Positions 1 to 52,782 of a DNA stretch of 52,782 bases are shown piece after piece. The notes beneath the pieces were generated by a model that worked only from the letters and a program-made list of their open reading frames with translations, was not told where the DNA came from and made no database searches. Source of the stretch: Escherichia phage vB_EcoM_swi3. The number at the start of each line of letters is the position of its first letter. Position 1 is the first letter of the stretch. Made by a program: the position numbers and the translations under genes. The stretch lies in sequence record MT768059.1; one strand, written 5' to 3'.

Positions 1-121
1 ACTTAGAGGTGTCTATATGTATGATCCGGTTTATCTCTTTATTAATATCAGAACCGGATGAAAAAAATTTACGCTGGCGAAAAAAATAAAAAAGCCGGAT
101 TGATAAATAAATCTGTAGACG

Positions 122-150
122 TTTACACTATAAAAAAGATGTGTTACAAT
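122..150 (+). promoter_or_regulatory. sigma70-like promoter (TTTACA-N17-TACAAT) upstream of 205..636
   Basis: Hexamers and 17-nt spacing read directly; 8-bp inverted repeat ATCCGGTT/AACCGGAT lies upstream at ~21..56. Confidence 0.45.
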
Positions 151-204
151 ATTTATCAATGTTGCTGATTACCAAATCTTTGGATTATATACGAGGCTGA
201 ATAA

Positions 205-636
205 ATGGTTAATATAAGACAGAAAGGACAGAACTTTGAGCGTAAAATGGCTAAGAAGTTCAATAGCTCGTTCGGATTAACTGTTGAGCGCAATCTTCAA
301 CAGTCTATTAATGGCGGGGATGACTTGCTGGGTGTACCGTTTTTCAGTGTTGAACTGAAGAAGCACAATACCAAGTCTATCGGAACATGGTGGAGACAGT
401 GTGCGGCATCGGCAAAGGCTCAGAACAAGATGCCGGTACTGATATACGAACTACCAAGAAAACAGCCTACCGTGGTGATGAATAAGGCTGATGTGATTGA
501 CTGTTTTCCAAGTGGCACGACTTTTAACGAGGCATCGAACCGCCTCTTTGTGGGTTTAGTAGAATTAACATGGGAACAATTTTGCCGGGTCTACAACTAT
601 TACGTTGCGCCCGGCACTCAATATCACGTCAATTAA
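205..636 (+). CDS. PD-(D/E)XK-fold nuclease, possibly Hjc/RecU-like Holliday junction resolvase
   Basis: 143 aa; N-terminal GQNFERK, then GGDDLL ... SVELKK matching D...(E)xK spacing of PD-(D/E)XK nucleases. Confidence 0.45.
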   Translation: MVNIRQKGQNFERKMAKKFNSSFGLTVERNLQQSINGGDDLLGVPFFSVELKKHNTKSIGTWWRQCAASAKAQNKMPVLIYELPRKQPTVVMNKADVIDCFPSGTTFNEASNRLFVGLVELTWEQFCRVYNYYVAPGTQYHVN

Positions 637-818
637 TCTTGTTTCAGCTCGTCACAAATGACACGCTGATTTTTGGCAGGGATAATACCAAGATTTAGCA
701 GGGTGTATGGACTATCAGCGACGCATTGTTCAACGGTAGTCCATTCAGGTTTGGATTCAACAATTTCGTAATTACAGTCGTGAGCTGCAATACATGTTGA
801 CAGTATTAAGCCAATCAC
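633..818 (-). CDS. hypothetical protein (GTG start)
   Basis: ORF continuing the leftward array; AGGTGA Shine-Dalgarno-like upstream; competes with antisense ORF 794..982. Confidence 0.25.
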   Translation of the reverse strand: MIGLILSTCIAAHDCNYEIVESKPEWTTVEQCVADSPYTLLNLGIIPAKNQRVICDELKQD

Positions 819-993
819 AAGTAATCACCTTCAACCAGGAACTCAAACAGCTGGTTGTAAACGTTGCAACCTTTAGCGAAAGAGCTTTCAGCAGGTTTAC
901 CGTCGCGGACGATCATCATATACTCACCGCCATGAATATCAACCCAGTATTGCATGCCACCTTTGACAGGGTTACGTTGTAAGAATTTAAACA

Positions 994-1239
994 TTATTTG
1001 CTCCTGATTCCAAGTTTATTCAATAACCAAATTGTCATGTCAACCCAGGTTAACGGTACAGTTTTCGGGGGTTGATAATCCCAGCAGCTTGCAGTTCTTT
1101 GTATTTCTGCTTGGCGCCGCTCCGCTTCGCGTAATACCGCATCGTCAGAAGTGCCGGCAGAAAAAAGATCGGTAACACCAGATAAATCGCGTTGATTAAC
1201 ACGTCGAGCAATGTCATATAAATCATCCTTAGAAAACAT
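994..1239 (-). CDS. hypothetical early protein
   Basis: 81-aa ORF downstream of minus-strand promoter at 1492..1520. Confidence 0.4.
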   Translation of the reverse strand: MFSKDDLYDIARRVNQRDLSGVTDLFSAGTSDDAVLREAERRQAEIQRTASCWDYQPPKTVPLTWVDMTIWLLNKLGIRSK

Positions 1240-1466
1240 AAGCCAATACCATAAGAATTATCAGAAAGACCACAACCAGCTTCCTCATCGCCCGACCTTC
1301 AGCATATGCAGGATTCACAACAGAATACTCAACAACATGTTTACAGCGGACCATAAGGCCTCCACTTGTGGGTTAATTCAAGCATGAGGACTTTCATCAA
1401 ATCCTCAGGATTGAATTAATTACCAGCTTTTAATCAAGCCCTGTCAGCGCCAGGACTTGACTAATA

Positions 1467-1670
1467 TCACTCTATCATTACCTGAACTACTATTATACAC
1501 TCTTTATTGAAGCGAGTAAACACTTTTCCACCATTAGTGCGTTTAGCCCCAGATTTTAGAGCTGACTGGCACCAGATATGCCACTCCTCAACTGTCAAGA
1601 ATTTTTGCTCAGCTTTGGGTGGCAATCCATTGGCAAGGTCTACCGTAGTAAATTTGACTAGTGGCATCAC
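1467..1670 (-). CDS. hypothetical early protein
   Basis: 67-aa ORF, 4-nt overlap with upstream ORF 1667..2056. Confidence 0.4.
   Translation of the reverse strand: MMPLVKFTTVDLANGLPPKAEQKFLTVEEWHIWCQSALKSGAKRTNGGKVFTRFNKECIIVVQVMIE
1492..1520 (-). promoter_or_regulatory. sigma70-like promoter (TTTACT-N17-TATAAT) on minus strand
   Basis: Reverse complement reads gTTTACTcgcttcaataaagagtgTATAAT; embedded in 3' end of ORF 1467..1670. Confidence 0.45.
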
Positions 1671-2056
1671 TTGACCTCAAATTTTGACTCGTCGTATTCC
1701 GGATCAGTCACGTCCCGGGTCGCACAATTTTTGATTGCTTCCCAGTAGCGTTGGGCGTCATCACCATCGACGTAAACCGTCCAGTGGCCGTAACCACCTT
1801 CAAATCTGTCCCAGGCTTGTTCCCAGACTTTGCCATCTTCCAGCTTGTACCAAGTTGGACGACTGTCAAACTCACGAATTGGATGGTACCCCATCAAGGG
1901 ATTCATCAGGTCGATAATGTCTTCCCGACTAATCTCCTGGTTCTCCCACAACACCGTCATGAATTGCTCAAACTTGAAGGCGTTTGGCAGAACTTTGAGT
2001 ACTTTACCGTCACAATATACGGTATAGATACCATCTTCGCATTTTGCACTGTACAT
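1667..2056 (-). CDS. hypothetical early protein
   Basis: 129-aa ORF in co-directional array. Confidence 0.5.
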   Translation of the reverse strand: MYSAKCEDGIYTVYCDGKVLKVLPNAFKFEQFMTVLWENQEISREDIIDLMNPLMGYHPIREFDSRPTWYKLEDGKVWEQAWDRFEGGYGHWTVYVDGDDAQRYWEAIKNCATRDVTDPEYDESKFEVK

Positions 2057-2129
2057 GTTTCTCTCTCCTGTTGATTGTGAATAATTTCAAAAATGAACTA
2101 TCACAACTTTGGACAGTTCATTGTTGAAA

Positions 2130-2318
2130 CTATGCTAACTTTGTTGCGATCTGAATTGTCAGCCGGAAATCTTCCATCAAGTTATCAAACTCTTTGGAAC
2201 CACCAACAGCATCAGATATTTGATCTTTCACAATTTGGGCATTTGATTCCAGTAATTCAATCAGGTGCGCCAATTCGTCTTCAGTCAATTTCAGATCTTT
2301 CATAATGCATCCACCCAA
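2130..2318 (-). CDS. hypothetical small acidic protein
   Basis: 62 aa, about 12 D/E vs 6 K/R. Confidence 0.4.
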   Translation of the reverse strand: MGGCIMKDLKLTEDELAHLIELLESNAQIVKDQISDAVGGSKEFDNLMEDFRLTIQIATKLA

Positions 2319-2557
2319 GCCATAACTTTTGCCAGTCTTACAACGTCTTCATGGTCCCGCTCGCCATCAGAAAATTCGCTGGCGATGATACCCATAATTG
2401 ACGCCAGATTCATGTTGATGATGTAGGCGTGTTGGCGCACTTCATCAATTCCTGAATCTATCACCAGTTCCGCAAATTCTTGTGAACCTTCATCCCATTC
2501 AGCCCAATACTGCTCAGCATAAAAGTCCAGTTCTTTTTTCATCTCAATGTCAGTCAT
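2300..2557 (-). CDS. hypothetical small acidic protein
   Basis: 85 aa, about 20 D/E vs 6 K/R. Confidence 0.45.
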   Translation of the reverse strand: MTDIEMKKELDFYAEQYWAEWDEGSQEFAELVIDSGIDEVRQHAYIINMNLASIMGIIASEFSDGERDHEDVVRLAKVMAWVDAL

Positions 2558-2562
2558 TTTGA

Positions 2563-2763
2563 TTACTCCTCAGAACCTGAAAATTTGTCGTCAATGGCTT
2601 CAACAATATAATCAAGAGTTGAAGTGTGAGAACTATCAGAAAAAGTGCCCATCTTCTCTAACTCAATCATCATATCACGCAAGGCCATCGCCTGGTCTTT
2701 GGTCAGTTTGATTTTAAGCATGTTTCTCTCCTGTTGATTGCGAATAACTTTCATTGATGGCAC
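2563..2763 (-). CDS. hypothetical small acidic protein
   Basis: 66 aa, acidic C-terminus. Confidence 0.4.
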   Translation of the reverse strand: MPSMKVIRNQQERNMLKIKLTKDQAMALRDMMIELEKMGTFSDSSHTSTLDYIVEAIDDKFSGSEE

Positions 2764-2785
2764 TACTTGAGCGCCATCTCAAAAA

Positions 2786-3355
2786 TTACTCTTCAGTTTC
2801 TTGTGCTTCAGTTTCAGGTTTTACTTCAGTATCAGGTTTTTTGCCAGTTACTGATTTGCCTTCGGTCACTTTACCAGATTTTACATCATTACGGTAGTAT
2901 GACATATATGACTGGATAACACGTTTTGCCTTAATATCATCCGCTTCCATTCCGCAAGCTTTCATCGCATCAGCGAGCGCCAATTTGGAGTCTTCCTTAT
3001 CCATCAGGTTGTAATCTTTGAACACCAGATAGCAGGTATCTTTAGTTGACGGACCAGATGACGATTTGCGAGAGCCACCAGCGGATGCTCGTGTTGTCGC
3101 AACTTTGACTTCTTCAACTTCCAGTTGGTTCAGCTCGTCAAACAAAGCCTTCACCAGCACTTCTTTGGAGTCTTTGACGCTTACAGTACTTTCATCATTA
3201 AGCGACTTAATCATCTTAATGATCTGGTTGTTGGCAAAGTACTGAAGACTATCCATCTGCACTACAATAGTGCCAAGACTTTCAGTAGTCAAACCAGATT
3301 TCACAGACTCGACAGAAAAAGCGGAAGTCAGGTAAACGTAGTTGATAGTTGTCAT
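2786..3355 (-). CDS. hypothetical protein with acidic C-terminal tail
   Basis: Start placed at internal ATG (3355) preceded by GAGGA; ORF-track start 3424 lies in palindrome GACAACTT..AAGTTGTC. Confidence 0.45.
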   Translation of the reverse strand: MTTINYVYLTSAFSVESVKSGLTTESLGTIVVQMDSLQYFANNQIIKMIKSLNDESTVSVKDSKEVLVKALFDELNQLEVEEVKVATTRASAGGSRKSSSGPSTKDTCYLVFKDYNLMDKEDSKLALADAMKACGMEADDIKAKRVIQSYMSYYRNDVKSGKVTEGKSVTGKKPDTEVKPETEAQETEE

Positions 3356-3450
3356 TTGATGTATCCTCGTTGATAGAATTTTTGATATGTGCCAATCCTT
3401 GGCAAGTAAGTCCAAACATGACAACTTTTGTCAAGTTGTCATGATTGAAA

Positions 3451-3753
3451 TCACTTCGCGCTTGCGTTTTCAACGGCTTGTACAACTTTCAACAAATGCC
3501 TGAAGTCATCATGATAGATTTCATTAAAGCCATCTGCCGCAAAGTTTTCGCCAATTAAGATCAGTCTTTCGCGGACCAAGTCAATCAATAGTTTATTGTC
3601 AGTTATTTCCGCACCTGTAACAAGTTCAACAAATAATTGCTGTACGTTATCGCAACGGATGTTACTTTCAATACACACTTGGCGCATGTCTTCAACTATT
3701 GACATGATTGTGACTTGCATTTCTACGTCAGAAGTGATGTTATTCAGTTTCAT
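3451..3753 (-). CDS. hypothetical small acidic protein
   Basis: 100 aa, about 17 D/E vs 9 K/R; first gene of leftward array next to control region. Confidence 0.45.
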   Translation of the reverse strand: MKLNNITSDVEMQVTIMSIVEDMRQVCIESNIRCDNVQQLFVELVTGAEITDNKLLIDLVRERLILIGENFAADGFNEIYHDDFRHLLKVVQAVENASAK

Positions 3754-3953
3754 AATAGTTACCTTTGTACTAGTTTCCAGGTGTGACTACTGTTACCAAT
3801 AGTCACTAGTTGAAACTACTACTTGTGTTACTATCAACAAGAAACATGTTACCAAATTGTTAAAGAGCAAAAGGTACCATTGACATCTACCAGATGTACC
3901 TGTTGACTGGTTAAGTACTACCTACCTAATCTAAACCATACCAATATCCTTTA

Positions 3954-3970
3954 GACCAGTTAGACTGGTC
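3954..3970. promoter_or_regulatory. perfect palindrome GACCAGT-TAG-ACTGGTC (putative operator)
   Basis: 7-bp arms with 3-bp spacer read directly; half-site GACTGGT recurs at 3905..3911. Confidence 0.4.
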
Positions 3971-4138
3971 AATCAGTCATCACATTCAATAAATATATAA
4001 TAGACCAATCGCTATTGATTGTACATAAAAGAATTGCAAGTTTATGCAAGTTTTTAGAAATGATAATCACTTGCGATTGATAGTGGTTCTCATATACAAT
4101 TGATATAGTTTCACATGTAATTATTCAACTCAAAATGG

Positions 4139-4370
4139 TCGGCAGGGGTTATAATAACATAGGGGTGCCACTTAAAGGAGCCGGCGAAATTATTTCTAAA
4201 AATATAATTTCAATCTGAATTATAGACGCTTTGTACTATAACGGCCGAAGTAGTTCACACGGTAATTGTACCAATCATAATAGTTACCAGAGTAATCATT
4301 TCAATTGAAATAGGTGCGGCGGGGGGTAATTTCGCAGGGGTGCTACCTGCCAGGAGCCAGCGGAATTTTT
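4139..4370. repeat. two copies of a ~57-bp GC-rich element, period ~176 bp
   Basis: 4139..4196 and 4315..4370 share GyCGGCrGGGG ... AGGGGTGCyAC ... AGGAGCCrGCGrAATT; flanked by AT-rich DNA. Confidence 0.5.
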
Positions 4371-4588
4371 TTATTTTTTGGTATTTTCTCCTTATCAGGA
4401 CCAATCATCATCAGAGTGATACGACAGGAGCTAACCTTTTGCCTAACACAATAATAAGTGAAGCCCCTCTAAAATTTTTTTATATTTTTCGGAAATTGTG
4501 TAGACACTCACTAAAAAGTGGTGTACTTTCTCTCCTCCACGCGCTATCATTAATGTGAATCATCAAACGGCCTCACGGTCTCCTACTT

Positions 4589-5086
4589 GTGGGTAACATT
4601 ATGAAAATTGTTCAATTAGAGCCATATCCGCCTCAATTGGCTATCGTTTGCAGCGAAAAAGAGCACGAAGAGCTCCAAAAACTGATGGATTTGCCTGATT
4701 TTGGCAACTGGAATGACCGAGAAACACGTACTGCATCTACCTTTACGTTCTCTCGCGTTAATTATCCGTACCTGTTAATTGTCGTCGAACTGTACCACCC
4801 GGACGACCTGAAGTACAACACCATTTCCCACGAAGGCATTCACGTAATGTCGTCGCTGATGAACTATGTTGGCCTTAAATACGACCCAGAAAACGATGAA
4901 TGGTACGCATATCAGCATGATTTCATCGTAAATGCCATTTGTAAGGCCCATGACGAGTACATTGAGCGCCAAAAAACGCCAAAAACTAAGCCAAAAATCG
5001 AAACAGGTAACCATCCTGCAATACTGCCACAAGACGTTATGAACTCGCTTTTGACTGACACTACTGGGGACTTTTTAGGTGATTAA
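4589..5086 (+). CDS. hypothetical protein with HExxH motif (possible small zinc metallopeptidase)
   Basis: 165 aa; motif ISHEGIHV; first gene of rightward block. Confidence 0.4.
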   Translation: MGNIMKIVQLEPYPPQLAIVCSEKEHEELQKLMDLPDFGNWNDRETRTASTFTFSRVNYPYLLIVVELYHPDDLKYNTISHEGIHVMSSLMNYVGLKYDPENDEWYAYQHDFIVNAICKAHDEYIERQKTPKTKPKIETGNHPAILPQDVMNSLLTDTTGDFLGD

Positions 5087-6256: not shown

Positions 6257-6972
6257 GCCCAGTATACAATACCTCAGTCACGCTGTCCGCAACCGTAGGG
6301 GACGTCAACAAGACAGTTACTGTGGGTTCAACTAACCCAAACCTGTCAGGTGAAGACCTGCTGCGCCTGGCCAAACGTGCTCTTGAAGATAATGAAGTGA
6401 CTGGTACTGAAGGCGTCAGCATTGAAATTAACGTCGAAGGATGTCCACACAGCATCAGTATTGCTACCTCTTCATTGCCGGATGATGAAACTCGTGAACA
6501 GCTGGAAACCAAAAAGTTCAACGATGAGCTGGAATATCGTACTGGTGAGATGTTCAGCAGTGCGTTAAACTGGTACTTGTGCAAGGCCTCGGGTTATACT
6601 GGTGCTCCTATGTCAGACCGCATGTTAGCTGATATGTCAGCTCGCGAAATTGCTAAAGGCTGGGCACATGTACAGATGCTGCAGGAGCATATCTGCAAAC
6701 TGGAAAGCTGCAATAAAGATGCGTCTGAGCTTATCACTGCCTATAAGCGACAGATTAACGACCTGCAGCAGTTGATGGGCAAACGTGCTGAAGAGTACGA
6801 GGCTGAGATTCGTAGCCTTAATGGTACAGCTGTTGCTAATAACCGTGCTTTCAGCGAAGAGCGTAAAGCGCTTATTGCCCAGCGTGACGCTGAAAAACGT
6901 CGTGCAGACGACCTGGCAGACCGTCTCAACTTTATCCGTAAGCATATGGATGCTATGGAAGGGGTAATCTGA
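6253..6972 (+). CDS. hypothetical protein with coiled-coil C-terminus
   Basis: ORF; start uncertain (6244 or 6253). Confidence 0.45.
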   Translation: MSPVYNTSVTLSATVGDVNKTVTVGSTNPNLSGEDLLRLAKRALEDNEVTGTEGVSIEINVEGCPHSISIATSSLPDDETREQLETKKFNDELEYRTGEMFSSALNWYLCKASGYTGAPMSDRMLADMSAREIAKGWAHVQMLQEHICKLESCNKDASELITAYKRQINDLQQLMGKRAEEYEAEIRSLNGTAVANNRAFSEERKALIAQRDAEKRRADDLADRLNFIRKHMDAMEGVI

Positions 6973-7262
6973 TGGACCTGTTCGATATGGTCGAACATCC
7001 TGAAGTAAACGGCTTGGCGGAAGCTAAGCCGTTTAGCTGGGATGAATTCGTAGCAGGCAAACCTGCTGTAACCCACAACGGGCAGATTGCATATTACGGA
7101 GGCCATAGCGAACATCCGATGTGCACTCACCTGTACAACGCTATCACAACCATATCCGACGAAAACGTTATTAAGTACGGAAAAGAGGTAATGCCTTTTC
7201 TTGTAGATGAACGCGGTTACTTCGAAGGTAAATGGTTCCCGTTTCTGGTAGAAATGGCCTAA
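6972..7262 (+). CDS. hypothetical protein
   Basis: 96-aa ORF, ATGA overlap with upstream gene. Confidence 0.45.
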   Translation: MDLFDMVEHPEVNGLAEAKPFSWDEFVAGKPAVTHNGQIAYYGGHSEHPMCTHLYNAITTISDENVIKYGKEVMPFLVDERGYFEGKWFPFLVEMA

Positions 7263-7439: not shown

Positions 7440-7730
7440 ATGGCAAAACCGAAAAAAACCCGTGAGGCAACAGAAGAGCTGTTGGCCACGATGCGACGTA
7501 TCCAACTGGACCCGTTGGAAGTTATGCAACGGGCTATCATACTTGCTGAACGTGAAGACGACTACAAAGCGATGATGGATGGTGCACTGGGCGTTATGCC
7601 GTACATGTATCCTAAACTGAAAGAATCCGTTGTCAAAGCAGACATCGACCAGAACCTGTCTGGTAATGGTGTCAACCTGAACATTACAATAGGCGACCAG
7701 AAAGTGGTAGATACTACTGGGGAAGAGTAA
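7440..7730 (+). CDS. putative terminase small subunit
   Basis: 96 aa, immediately upstream of terminase large subunit; position-based. Confidence 0.45.
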   Translation: MAKPKKTREATEELLATMRRIQLDPLEVMQRAIILAEREDDYKAMMDGALGVMPYMYPKLKESVVKADIDQNLSGNGVNLNITIGDQKVVDTTGEE

Positions 7731-7733
7731 TAA

Positions 7734-9182
7734 ATGAATCTTGACTTTCACCTGCATGACAGACAAGGTGCCGCTCTGCAGTCTCAGGCAACTGAGATTC
7801 TATACGGTGGTGCTGCTGGTGGTGGTAAGTCTCACCTTATGCGTGTAATGTCAATTATCATGTGCTGCATGATACCTGACTTGCAGATTTACCTTTTCCG
7901 CCGAAACTATAACGACCTTACGGCTAACCATATGGTTGGTCCCACAAGTTATCCTGCCTTGCTGGACGGTATGTGCAAAGCTGGCAAGTGCAAGATTAAC
8001 TACTCGAGCAACACGATTAAATTCTGGAACGGTGCGAACATCAAGCTCTGCCACCTCCAGTACGAAAAAGATATTTATACATACCAGGGTGCGGAGATTC
8101 ACGTTCTGCTGATGGATGAGCTTACTCACTTCACAGAAACGATGTACCGCTTCTTGCGTAACCGTGTCCGACTCGGTGCTCTCAAAGTCCCTGAGAACTT
8201 TTTCCGGCCACTGCCACTCATCTTTTGTGGGTCAAACCCCGGTGGGGTTGGTCACAACTGGGTTAAGCGCACTTTTGTAACTGCTGCTCCTCCGATGAAA
8301 ATCGTTAAGCAGGAAAAACGCGAAGGCGGTATGGCGCGTCAGTACATTCCGGCTAAGATGACTGATAACCCTACGCTGATGGAAAACGACCCTGACTACG
8401 GTGACCGTCTTGAAGGTCTTGGTGACCCGGCTCTTGTTGCTGCGATGAAAGAGGGTGACTGGGATATTGTTGCTGGTGGTGCGCTTGACGACGTATGGTC
8501 AACCAAGTGTATTCTGCCGCGTATGCGTATTCCGAAAGGCTGGACTATCGAACGTTCTCTCGACTGGGGGTCTACTCACCCGTTCTCTGTTGGTATCTGG
8601 GCTATTGCAAATGGTGCCTCGCTTACAGACGACGAAGGCAATGAGTACTTTATTCCGCGTGGTTCAATTATACGTATAGCTGAATGGTATGGGTGCTCTG
8701 AAAAAGAAGCTAACAGGGGTATTAAATTATCTGCTGCCGAAGTCGCTCAAGGTATTATTCGTCTACAGGAAAATCTGCAGGCTGGTGGCTGGATTCAAAG
8801 CAACGTTAATCCTGGTCCGGCAGATAGTCAGATTTATGCGTGCAAGGAAAAAGACGTCGAGACTATCGCGAAGAAAATGGAAGACGAAGGCGTAACCTGG
8901 GTCAAGGCCGACAAGTCGCAAGGTTCGAGAATAAATGGCTTAGAGCTATTCCGTCAGCTTCTGAAAAATGTTAAGATGGACGAAACGGAAAAGCCGGGCA
9001 TTTATTTCATGGAAAACTGTCCAGCAGCCATAAACACGTTGCCGGTTCTGCCGCGTGACAAGAACAACACGGAAGATGTCGACACGAACTCTGAAGACCA
9101 CGTATACGATGATTGTCGTTACATGGTGTTGCGTGGCATCAACCGTTATACTACCAAGCTCAAAATAAATATGGGACGGTAA
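7734..9182 (+). CDS. terL: terminase large subunit
   Basis: 482 aa; Walker A-like LYGGAAGGGKSH, Walker B-like LLMDELTH, C-terminal nuclease-sized domain. Confidence 0.8.
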   Translation: MNLDFHLHDRQGAALQSQATEILYGGAAGGGKSHLMRVMSIIMCCMIPDLQIYLFRRNYNDLTANHMVGPTSYPALLDGMCKAGKCKINYSSNTIKFWNGANIKLCHLQYEKDIYTYQGAEIHVLLMDELTHFTETMYRFLRNRVRLGALKVPENFFRPLPLIFCGSNPGGVGHNWVKRTFVTAAPPMKIVKQEKREGGMARQYIPAKMTDNPTLMENDPDYGDRLEGLGDPALVAAMKEGDWDIVAGGALDDVWSTKCILPRMRIPKGWTIERSLDWGSTHPFSVGIWAIANGASLTDDEGNEYFIPRGSIIRIAEWYGCSEKEANRGIKLSAAEVAQGIIRLQENLQAGGWIQSNVNPGPADSQIYACKEKDVETIAKKMEDEGVTWVKADKSQGSRINGLELFRQLLKNVKMDETEKPGIYFMENCPAAINTLPVLPRDKNNTEDVDTNSEDHVYDDCRYMVLRGINRYTTKLKINMGR

Positions 9183-52556: not shown

Positions 52557-52724
52557 AAGCTTATTTTACAAACTGATTAATATTTAAACTATAATTAAAT
52601 ATATGGACCCTAAGAGTATGATTTTATTACTCTTTTACAAATCATAATATATGGGCTCCCTATAAAAAGATTAAGGGGGTAATAAGGGGATCCAAGTACC
52701 GGATAAAAGGGGTATATATTTATT

Positions 52725-52745
52725 TTATTATTATTATTATTATTA
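52725..52745. repeat. (TTA)7 microsatellite in AT-rich terminal region
   Basis: Seven tandem TTA units read directly. Confidence 0.7.
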
Positions 52746-52782
52746 TATATTATTAATTATATTAGAAGTAATAAAAACAGCT

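Follow-up and report, generated by a model that had tools for sequence, protein, structure and literature searches.

In the genome of Escherichia phage vB_EcoM_swi3 (MT768059.1), two tandem G-rich repeat units, here called unit 1 and unit 2, probably mark the inner edge of a long direct terminal repeat (76-4358) and form part of a cis-acting packaging signal that generates the ends of the virion DNA, a reading to which we assign a probability of about 0.6. The stretch analysed, hereafter the window, is the whole 52,782-nucleotide sequence of that record and constitutes a complete genome of a Rosemountvirus-type myophage, in which the two units sit in an 848-bp non-coding region (3754-4600). 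This reading is carried by a physical end that falls inside unit 2 in related phages, by a related site at both termini, and by the conserved position and spacing of the units. In kind, the element is a phage terminus or packaging signal, that is, a known type of element and not a new category.

Terminal repeats in relatives and the predicted virion ends

In all three relatives with a mapped repeat (fHy-Eco03, AEV23 and Sz), the right boundary of a 3.7-4.3 kb repeat lies inside the 3′ box of unit 2, at GGAGCC^AGCGGAATTTTTTT (the caret marks the boundary here and below). For fHy-Eco03, direct terminal repeats of 3699 bp were published on the basis of PhageTerm and confirmed with restriction digests, and the annotated boundary at record position 3699 falls within the unit 2 homologue, at AAGCCCC^GGCAAATTTTTT; in longer context, the right boundary of its left repeat reads ...GGGGTGTTAATTTAAGCCCC^GGCAAATTTTTTATTTTTTT. 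The Sz record, which shares 99% identity with the window in this region, has one and the same 4263-bp repeat at its two ends; this repeat starts with GGCGAAAAAAATAAAAAAGCC at the equivalent of window base 76 and ends with ...CCTGCCAGGAGCC (GGAGCC) at the equivalent of base 4358. For AEV23, a repeat of 3915 bp was published from PhageTerm, and in its record exactly that length separates the left-terminus breakpoint and the cut in unit 2 (GCC^GACGG). Homology with ZCSE2 begins at this left-terminus site, beyond which lies foreign DNA bearing IS5. Restriction mapping of S144, at lower resolution, placed a physical end in the gap between gene clusters E and A, which is the intergenic region that holds the units.

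Among the roughly 30 records examined, termini are annotated in fHy-Eco03 only, and both copies of the repeat are present in Sz and fHy-Eco03 only. The AEV23 record was expected to carry the repeat at its ends and instead proved to be a chimera that is not arranged by the reported repeat: DNA encoding an IS5 transposase (OR810919.1, 54074-54683) is joined exactly at the left terminus, as an assembly chimera at a physical end. The record of LPSEYT (MH181876.1) opens no more than a few bases from the cut in unit 2, where the T-tract starts (approximately window 4362-4366), which could reflect either a physical end or an assembly break at a homopolymer.

Because both boundary sequences are identical to those of Sz, we place the repeat of the window phage at 76-4358, so that the predicted left end of the virion DNA is base 76 and the predicted right end base 4358. 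A repeat of this size would make up approximately 7.5% of a virion DNA estimated at 57,065 bp. Within it lie a RusA-like gene, a cluster of small leftward early genes and the greater part of the non-coding control region. A strong sigma-70-like promoter (TTTACA, 17-bp spacer, extended -10 TGtTACAAT) is found a short way inside the left end, at 122-150, upstream of the RusA-like resolvase gene (205-636).

The two boundaries share a sequence motif. At the left-terminus site, L, the core is near-palindromic (TTTACGCT^GGCGAAAA). With both strands of the 52.8 kb counted, the pattern GCYRGCGRAA occurs at three sites only, namely 73 (L), 4180 (unit 1) and 4356 (unit 2), and AAAWWTTNCGCYGGC, with at most one mismatch, matches only 64-78 (+), 4180-4194 (-) and 4356-4370 (-), against 0.05 matches expected, a chance figure that is optimistic in that both patterns were written after the sites had been seen. 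Even with such generous statistics, the restriction of the terminus box to L, unit 1 and unit 2 in this genome is real. Read from the outside inward, the top strand of L (AAAAAAATTTACGCT^GGC) is nearly the same as the bottom strand of unit 2 (AAAAAAATTCCGCT^GGC), and the sequences that immediately flank the termini on the outside repeat one another in inverted orientation. Homologous L sites are present in yarpen, ZCSE2, AEV23, fHy-Eco03 and SOI901 at mapped or inferred left ends, and within each clade the flanks of L and unit 2 are alike (TTGCC^GG in fHy-Eco03, CGCY^GGC in Rosemountvirus and CG(C/T)C^GGCG in Loughboroughvirus). A third unit was sought at the left terminus, where no significant likeness extends beyond the A-run and the box.

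Two further features were observed outside the left terminus. The only run of at least 25 nt in the genome composed solely of A and T is a 52-nt stretch (52713-52764) about 90 nt beyond it, preceded by GGGGGTAATAAGGGG (52675), which echoes the G-run, TAAT and GGGG of the units; the run could help to unwind or bend the DNA at the concatemer junction. Just outside the terminus, at 24-59, two 8-bp arms, ATCCGGTT ... AACCGGAT, form an inverted repeat around a spacer of 20 nt, and fHy-Eco03 and SOI901 have a comparable CCGG-containing element.

Structure, conservation and proposed role of the units

Local alignment of the two halves of the region gave a score of 44, compared with 17.2 +/- 2.4 (maximum 29) for composition shuffles and at most 27 for random pairs of 200-nt genome segments. 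This alignment bears out the period of approximately 176 bp and the two GC-rich islands with a shared core that a sequence-only reading had described, and the T-tract it had noted after the second island is present as T7AT6 (Table 1). The length of about 57 bp given there for each element needs revision, since the repeat is really about 92 bp long and takes in an AT-rich 5′ part (ATAGTT..GTAAT..TTCAA..AAAT.GGT). The 46-nt bodies that precede the box have a G+C content of 0.52 and 0.70, within a surrounding region of approximately 0.25-0.35, and on the + strand G exceeds C in them with a skew of approximately +0.3. Elsewhere in the window the whole unit does not recur.

Table 1. Coordinates of the terminal repeat, its predicted boundaries and the elements of the inner edge in the window
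Feature	Position	Strand	Details and basis
Predicted direct terminal repeat, 4283 bp	76..4358		Both boundary sequences identical to Sz
Left-terminus site L, AAAAAAATTTACGCT^GGCGAAAAAAATAAAAAAGCC; predicted virion left end at base 76	61..95	+	Start of the Sz repeat; homologous sites
Rigidly spaced terminal module: AT-rich conserved blocks, unit 1, inter-unit GTAAT repeats, unit 2	4054..4358	+	
Unit 1, full repeat copy	4105..4196	+	G-rich body 4137-4182; box GCC^GGCGAAATTATT at 4180-4194
Three short (G/A)TAAT-containing repeats between the units, 15-bp spacing	4261..4296	+	Sequence; clade alignment
Unit 2, full repeat copy	4280..4372	+	G-rich body 4313-4358; box GCC^AGCGGAA at 4356-4365
T7AT6 tract just outside the terminal repeat	4366..4379	+	With 4359-4365, inverted counterpart of the left-terminus outer flank

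Both units are found at the same place in every relative examined, across five clades: Rosemountvirus; Loughboroughvirus (S144, ZCSE2, SE4, AEV23, S1); Erwinia phage SOI901; KE25; and fHy-Eco03/KM. In this region the window has 95-99% identity to the Escherichia phages SD350 and IntR and to the Salmonella phages Sz, triss, zoltan and BP63. Between the extremes of the clades, the neighbouring protein has just 37-40% identity, whereas the non-coding blocks are far better conserved. Units 1 and 2 lie 175-177 bp apart in each of the 13 phages measured, which represent the five clades, and in nine phages of the same five clades the distances to the unit 1 cut are 129-130 bp from conserved block A and 83-84 bp from block B. 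From unit 2 to the next conserved block downstream, the distance in nine phages varies from 154 to 180 bp. The terminal module of approximately 305 bp at the right end of the virion DNA is thus invariant in length, which suggests a defined nucleoprotein complex rather than a set of independent sites.

The 15-mer box of unit 1 is identical in Rosemountvirus, Loughboroughvirus, SOI901 and KE25, with variants in renfri (GCCAGCG) and in fHy-Eco03 and KM (CCCCGGCGCAATTTTT / CCTCGGCGCAATTTTT). Alignment of 21 unit copies leaves as invariant columns the G-run about 33 bp before the cut, the C directly before the cut, the A/T flank beyond it and isolated columns scattered over the body, one of them a G in the GGTG block that lies some 15 bp short of the cut; none of these columns is explained by base pairing. 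In the window the G-runs are at 4145-4148 and 4321-4326. Upstream of unit 1, in a block (4035-4075) that is almost invariant across clades, TGCAAGT occurs twice in direct orientation (4035 and 4045) and once inverted (ACTTGCG, 4069), and these sites are candidates for an operator or for protein binding within the terminal module.

Beyond the named relatives, protein-anchored scans of viral and metagenome contigs returned members of this lineage only. A scan of viral contigs with the 15-mer gave 118 matches, of which 8 were filtered as relatives, and one with the unit pattern gave 4 relatives and 1 unrelated match. In genome contigs the unit pattern matched 39 times, once with both units; the other 38 were single matches that we assumed, uninspected, to be due to chance. 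The match with both units, 178 bp apart, is an 18.5-kb Rosemountvirus contig (JAEWIF010000040.1) binned in a metagenome-assembled genome labelled 'Proteobacteria bacterium'.

The units are non-coding and conserved cis-acting DNA, as had been read from the sequence. The open reading frames (ORFs) across them are not kept among clades. Small proteins encoded by a 27-codon ORF across unit 1 (4135-4218) or a 46-codon ORF with a GTG start from unit 2 (4314-4454) were considered and rejected: the start codon is missing in SOI901, KE25 and fHy-Eco03, the reading frame is not the same in unit 1 as in unit 2, and a ribosome-binding site is lacking. Some automated annotations (vB_SenM-1, KE24, SPHG1) do call genes across the units, in ORFs that other clades do not keep.

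To the left of the non-coding region the small genes are clustered and point leftward, and to its right begins a rightward operon whose first product is a 161-aa HExxH protein, followed by dihydrofolate reductase. The first rightward gene (4601-5086) has no Pfam match and belongs to PHROG 1365, a family of unknown function; its homologue is named 'Ku' in the S144 annotation, and virions of fHy-Eco03 contain the homologue according to mass spectrometry. IntR (OM313460.1) has gene coordinates equal to those of the window and differs from it by 52 substitutions that are clustered in 3972-4986, with none in 3500-3971, a pattern that looks like a mosaic or another version of that genome. TerL is encoded at 7734-9182, directly preceded by genes for small proteins at 6972-7262 and 7440-7730.

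Based on these features, we propose that the right end of the virion DNA would be made at the 3′ box of unit 2 (GGAGCC^AGCGGAA, followed by T7AT6). The related left box (ACGCT^GGCGAAA) presents the same outer flank in inverted form (A-run, TT, N, CGCY^GGC). Since this flank stands in opposite orientation at the two boundaries, one enzyme, presumably terminase, could recognise both. One oriented site, inverted between the boundaries so that on either strand it comes immediately before the repeat's 5′ end, gives the layout needed by the staggered-nick and strand-displacement model established for T7. Applied to this phage, the Watson/T7 scheme would have each strand nicked where the repeat begins in the 5′ to 3′ direction, after which strand-displacement synthesis would duplicate the repeat. 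The conserved blocks of the body, at about -33 (G-run), -15 (GGTG) and 0 (CC^RGC), together with unit 1, exactly 176 bp inside unit 2, may act as accessory recognition elements comparable to pacB, cosB/cosQ and the pac repeats of P1 and SPP1, which could bind packaging proteins or signal, with polarity, the cut at the end of a packaging run. The position of the terminus in relatives, the shared motif with its restriction to three sites, and the conserved spacing are observed, whereas which enzyme acts, whether it nicks or cuts both strands, and what unit 1 and the G-rich bodies contribute are inferred.

Several points weigh against this reading, besides the optimism of the chance statistics given above. 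The ends of the window phage itself are placed by identity with Sz and by homology with two other phages, PhageTerm boundaries may be a few bases off, and a nick is not distinguished from a double-strand break. Unit 1 is the observed end in none of the three mapped relatives (0/3). Site L has the box without a G-rich body, which implies that the bodies are not needed for cutting as such, and they could have another function at the same place. No small terminase subunit was recognised. Promoter-like hexamers also overlap the units, so a transcriptional role may coexist with a role in end formation.

A bolder version of the packaging reading, which we hold only tentatively and consider well short of an even chance, is that long terminal repeats are here delimited by a polar 'measure-and-cut' device, hitherto undescribed, made up of the tandem G-rich units. 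The packaging motor, as it moved rightward, would meet unit 1 and then, 176 bp on, unit 2, would be halted or remodelled by the G-rich bodies, and would cut at the box of unit 2; unit 1 might then be a programmed nick or an alternative end, as in T5, and the left boundary, which has this site in the same oriented form, would supply the staggered nicks needed to duplicate the 4.3-kb repeat.

Alternative roles

The sequence-only reading had offered small structured RNAs, an origin or iteron-like element and regulator binding sites as candidates. The last of these comes nearest in kind, in that the units appear to be DNA sites recognised by protein, but the evidence points to a terminus and packaging role, which was not among the candidates, with the right end of the repeat lying inside unit 2.

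Transcription signals are the alternative that survives best, although we regard them as an unlikely explanation of the units. Here a host sigma-70 promoter (TTGAAA, a GC-rich spacer and TAATTT/TATAAT) would occupy the 5′ half of each unit or lie just upstream of the unit, and the T-tract would be a terminator, an attenuator or an UP element for rightward transcription leaving the repeat. TTGAAA-16-TAATTT does fit in unit 2, a -10-like TAWWWT follows the G-run in most copies, and the repeat itself includes -10-like ATAGT/GTAAT upstream of each body. A consensus scan gives TTGCGA-18-TACAAT upstream of unit 1 and TTCACA-16-CATAAT upstream of unit 2, and the S144 annotation, which is based on PhagePromoter, has promoters over both units. 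However, the -35 element and spacing of unit 1 are poor or unconserved (the spacer is 14-15 bp in S144, and TTGAAA is absent in the window), and the quality of the -35 element and the spacing differ between clades. The original view that these are not ordinary sigma-70 promoters is probably correct. Spacings for sigma-54, sigma-32 and sigma-28 consensus sequences, compared by eye, do not fit on either strand. As to termination, a scan of the + strand over 3400-4900 finds no intrinsic terminator despite the U-tract at 4366-4379, and no terminator-like hairpin precedes the T-tract: the minimum-free-energy hairpin of unit 2 ends several bases before it, and candidate stems are broken in relatives, as in the GGCGGG/CCUGCC pairing, which when checked by hand is mismatched in copies of the SE13 and IntR types. 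Transcription signals also leave unexplained the box shared with the left terminus, the uniqueness of that box and the fixed spacing of 176 bp; they may coexist with the terminus function.

A role in DNA entry as in phage T5 is an improbable alternative, in which the conserved untranslated block at the inner edge of the repeat would be an injection-stop or end-handling signal and not a terminase signal. The left terminal repeat of T5 contains an untranslated Repeat Region 3 with the injection stop signal and site-specific nicks, and the injection stop region has paired DnaA boxes within conserved inverted repeats and is associated with a two-step transfer of the DNA (10.1101/866236; PMC10644984). 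The layouts are parallel: the predicted repeat of about 7.5% of the genome compares with about 8% in T5, both hold pre-early or small early genes, and in both a conserved untranslated repeat region is better kept than the adjacent ORFs and overruns the inner boundary. Unit 2 would moreover be the last 46 bp of the virion DNA. Unlike in T5, however, there are no consensus DnaA boxes in 3754-4601, although it is boxes of this type that have been proposed as the conserved element of the signal in T5, and the region here measures approximately 0.85 kb, compared with 1.2 kb plus other regions in T5. Neither two-step injection nor nicks are known for these phages, and the mechanism is unresolved even in T5.

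Still less probable is a replication origin primed by transcription, in which rightward transcripts, with G clusters on the non-template strand, would form persistent RNA-DNA hybrids beside easily melted AT-rich DNA; precedents for origins of this R-loop type are ColE1, T4 oriF and oriG, and mitochondrial CSBII. The G>C skew of the bodies, the invariant run of four to seven G followed by AT-rich tracts, and the promoter-like sites upstream of each unit would suit such an origin, and cumulative GC skew along the genome is lowest at approximately 4-5 kb. This minimum nevertheless coincides with the switch in gene orientation, and hence is not specific, confounded as it is with divergent transcription; AT-rich DNA near the units is likewise unspecific. 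There are two copies only, 176 bp apart, whereas an iteron array requires at least three short direct repeats, the DnaA boxes are missing here too, and no initiator-like family occurs among the neighbouring genes. The IHF consensus is absent from the terminal module. An origin would, in addition, leave the coincidence with the terminus and the box shared with the left end unexplained, and the suggestion of an origin or iteron-like element thus finds no specific support.

Weakest of all is the proposal that the units encode a pair of paralogous small RNAs with a defined structure, or else a tandem leader resembling a riboswitch, which we consider very improbable even though GC-rich islands within AT-rich DNA, a possible closing stem of unit 1 (GUCGGC/GCCGGC) and the U-tract after unit 2 invite it: no fold better than that of shuffled sequence, no consensus structure and no covariation was found. 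A covariance search of the whole window against Rfam at gathering thresholds gave 0 matches, no Rfam match overlapped either unit at E<=10 in 3750-4650, and ARAGORN found no tRNA or tmRNA. Folding of the two units on both strands yielded z-scores of -0.07, +0.10, -0.46 and +0.16 relative to shuffles. RNAalifold predicted 0 pairs on the 21 aligned units; run per unit, it returned only the 6-bp closing stem for unit 1 copies and almost nothing for unit 2 copies, with weak energies, and that stem pairs in 39.7% of cells compared with 40.3% in shuffled alignments, slid controls being no worse. Candidate stems are broken without compensation in renfri (GCCGGC to GCCAGC), in SOI901 and KE25 (GTCGGC to GTCGAC), in IntR (three non-compensated changes in the unit 2 hairpin) and in SE13, and each of the hairpins built by hand (UAGG/CUUA, GCAGG/CCUGC, GGCGGG/CCUGCC and GUCGGC/GCCGGC) fails on relatives.

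Known packaging signals and significance

The packaging signal that we propose has its closest parallels in T7 and T3, in which the concatemer-junction signals are pacB and the pacC cleavage sites at the boundaries of the terminal repeat and for which Watson proposed the staggered-nick model in 1972. As in those phages, sequence-specific ends flank a direct terminal repeat, once per concatemer junction, with cis elements within the repeat beside the boundary, and both boundaries would have to be cut and the repeat duplicated. Unlike T7 and T3, the repeat here is 4.3 kb long and not 160-230 bp, there is no sequence similarity, and transcription is by the host RNA polymerase, where T7 uses a phage RNA polymerase. 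The tandem G-rich units at a fixed 176 bp have no T7 counterpart, and are known here from sequence alone.

In phage lambda, cos is composed of cosQ, cosN and cosB, and the DNA has 12-nt cohesive ends and no terminal repeat. The resemblance lies in a multipartite signal, in which a nicking site is combined with accessory binding and termination elements within about 200 bp and is polar with respect to the direction of packaging, whereas the R sites and the IHF site of lambda have no equivalent here. The pac sites of P1 and SPP1 are bipartite regions of approximately 160-250 bp, made of repeated elements that flank or adjoin the cut, and their spacing is thought to be set by protein-induced looping or wrapping. 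The spacing of their elements is comparable with the fixed 176 bp between units 1 and 2, although P1 and SPP1 package by a headful mechanism that leaves imprecise, permuted ends, and both ends are precise here.

The published accounts that we found include terminal repeats for fHy-Eco03 and AEV23 but mention neither the tandem units nor their fixed spacing, nor the box that the termini share. How kilobase-long direct terminal repeats are defined at the sequence level, and how they are duplicated, is poorly understood in phages. For this phage group, which comprises more than 60 sequenced phages of Salmonella, E. coli, Klebsiella and Erwinia, many of them proposed for biocontrol, the analysis provides a candidate terminus motif at both ends together with a conserved, rigidly spaced accessory module. 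If the proposed packaging signal is correct, the virion DNA would be a molecule of approximately 57.07 kb with defined ends (window 76 and 4358), and not one of 52.8 kb with arbitrary ends, and would carry a 4.3-kb block of early genes twice. If the 'measure-and-cut' version were also true, it would explain for the first time, at the level of sequence, how the repeat of a long-repeat phage is defined. The motif and module should be useful for correcting the genome ends of the group, and these phages may offer a tractable case in which to study the formation of long terminal repeats.

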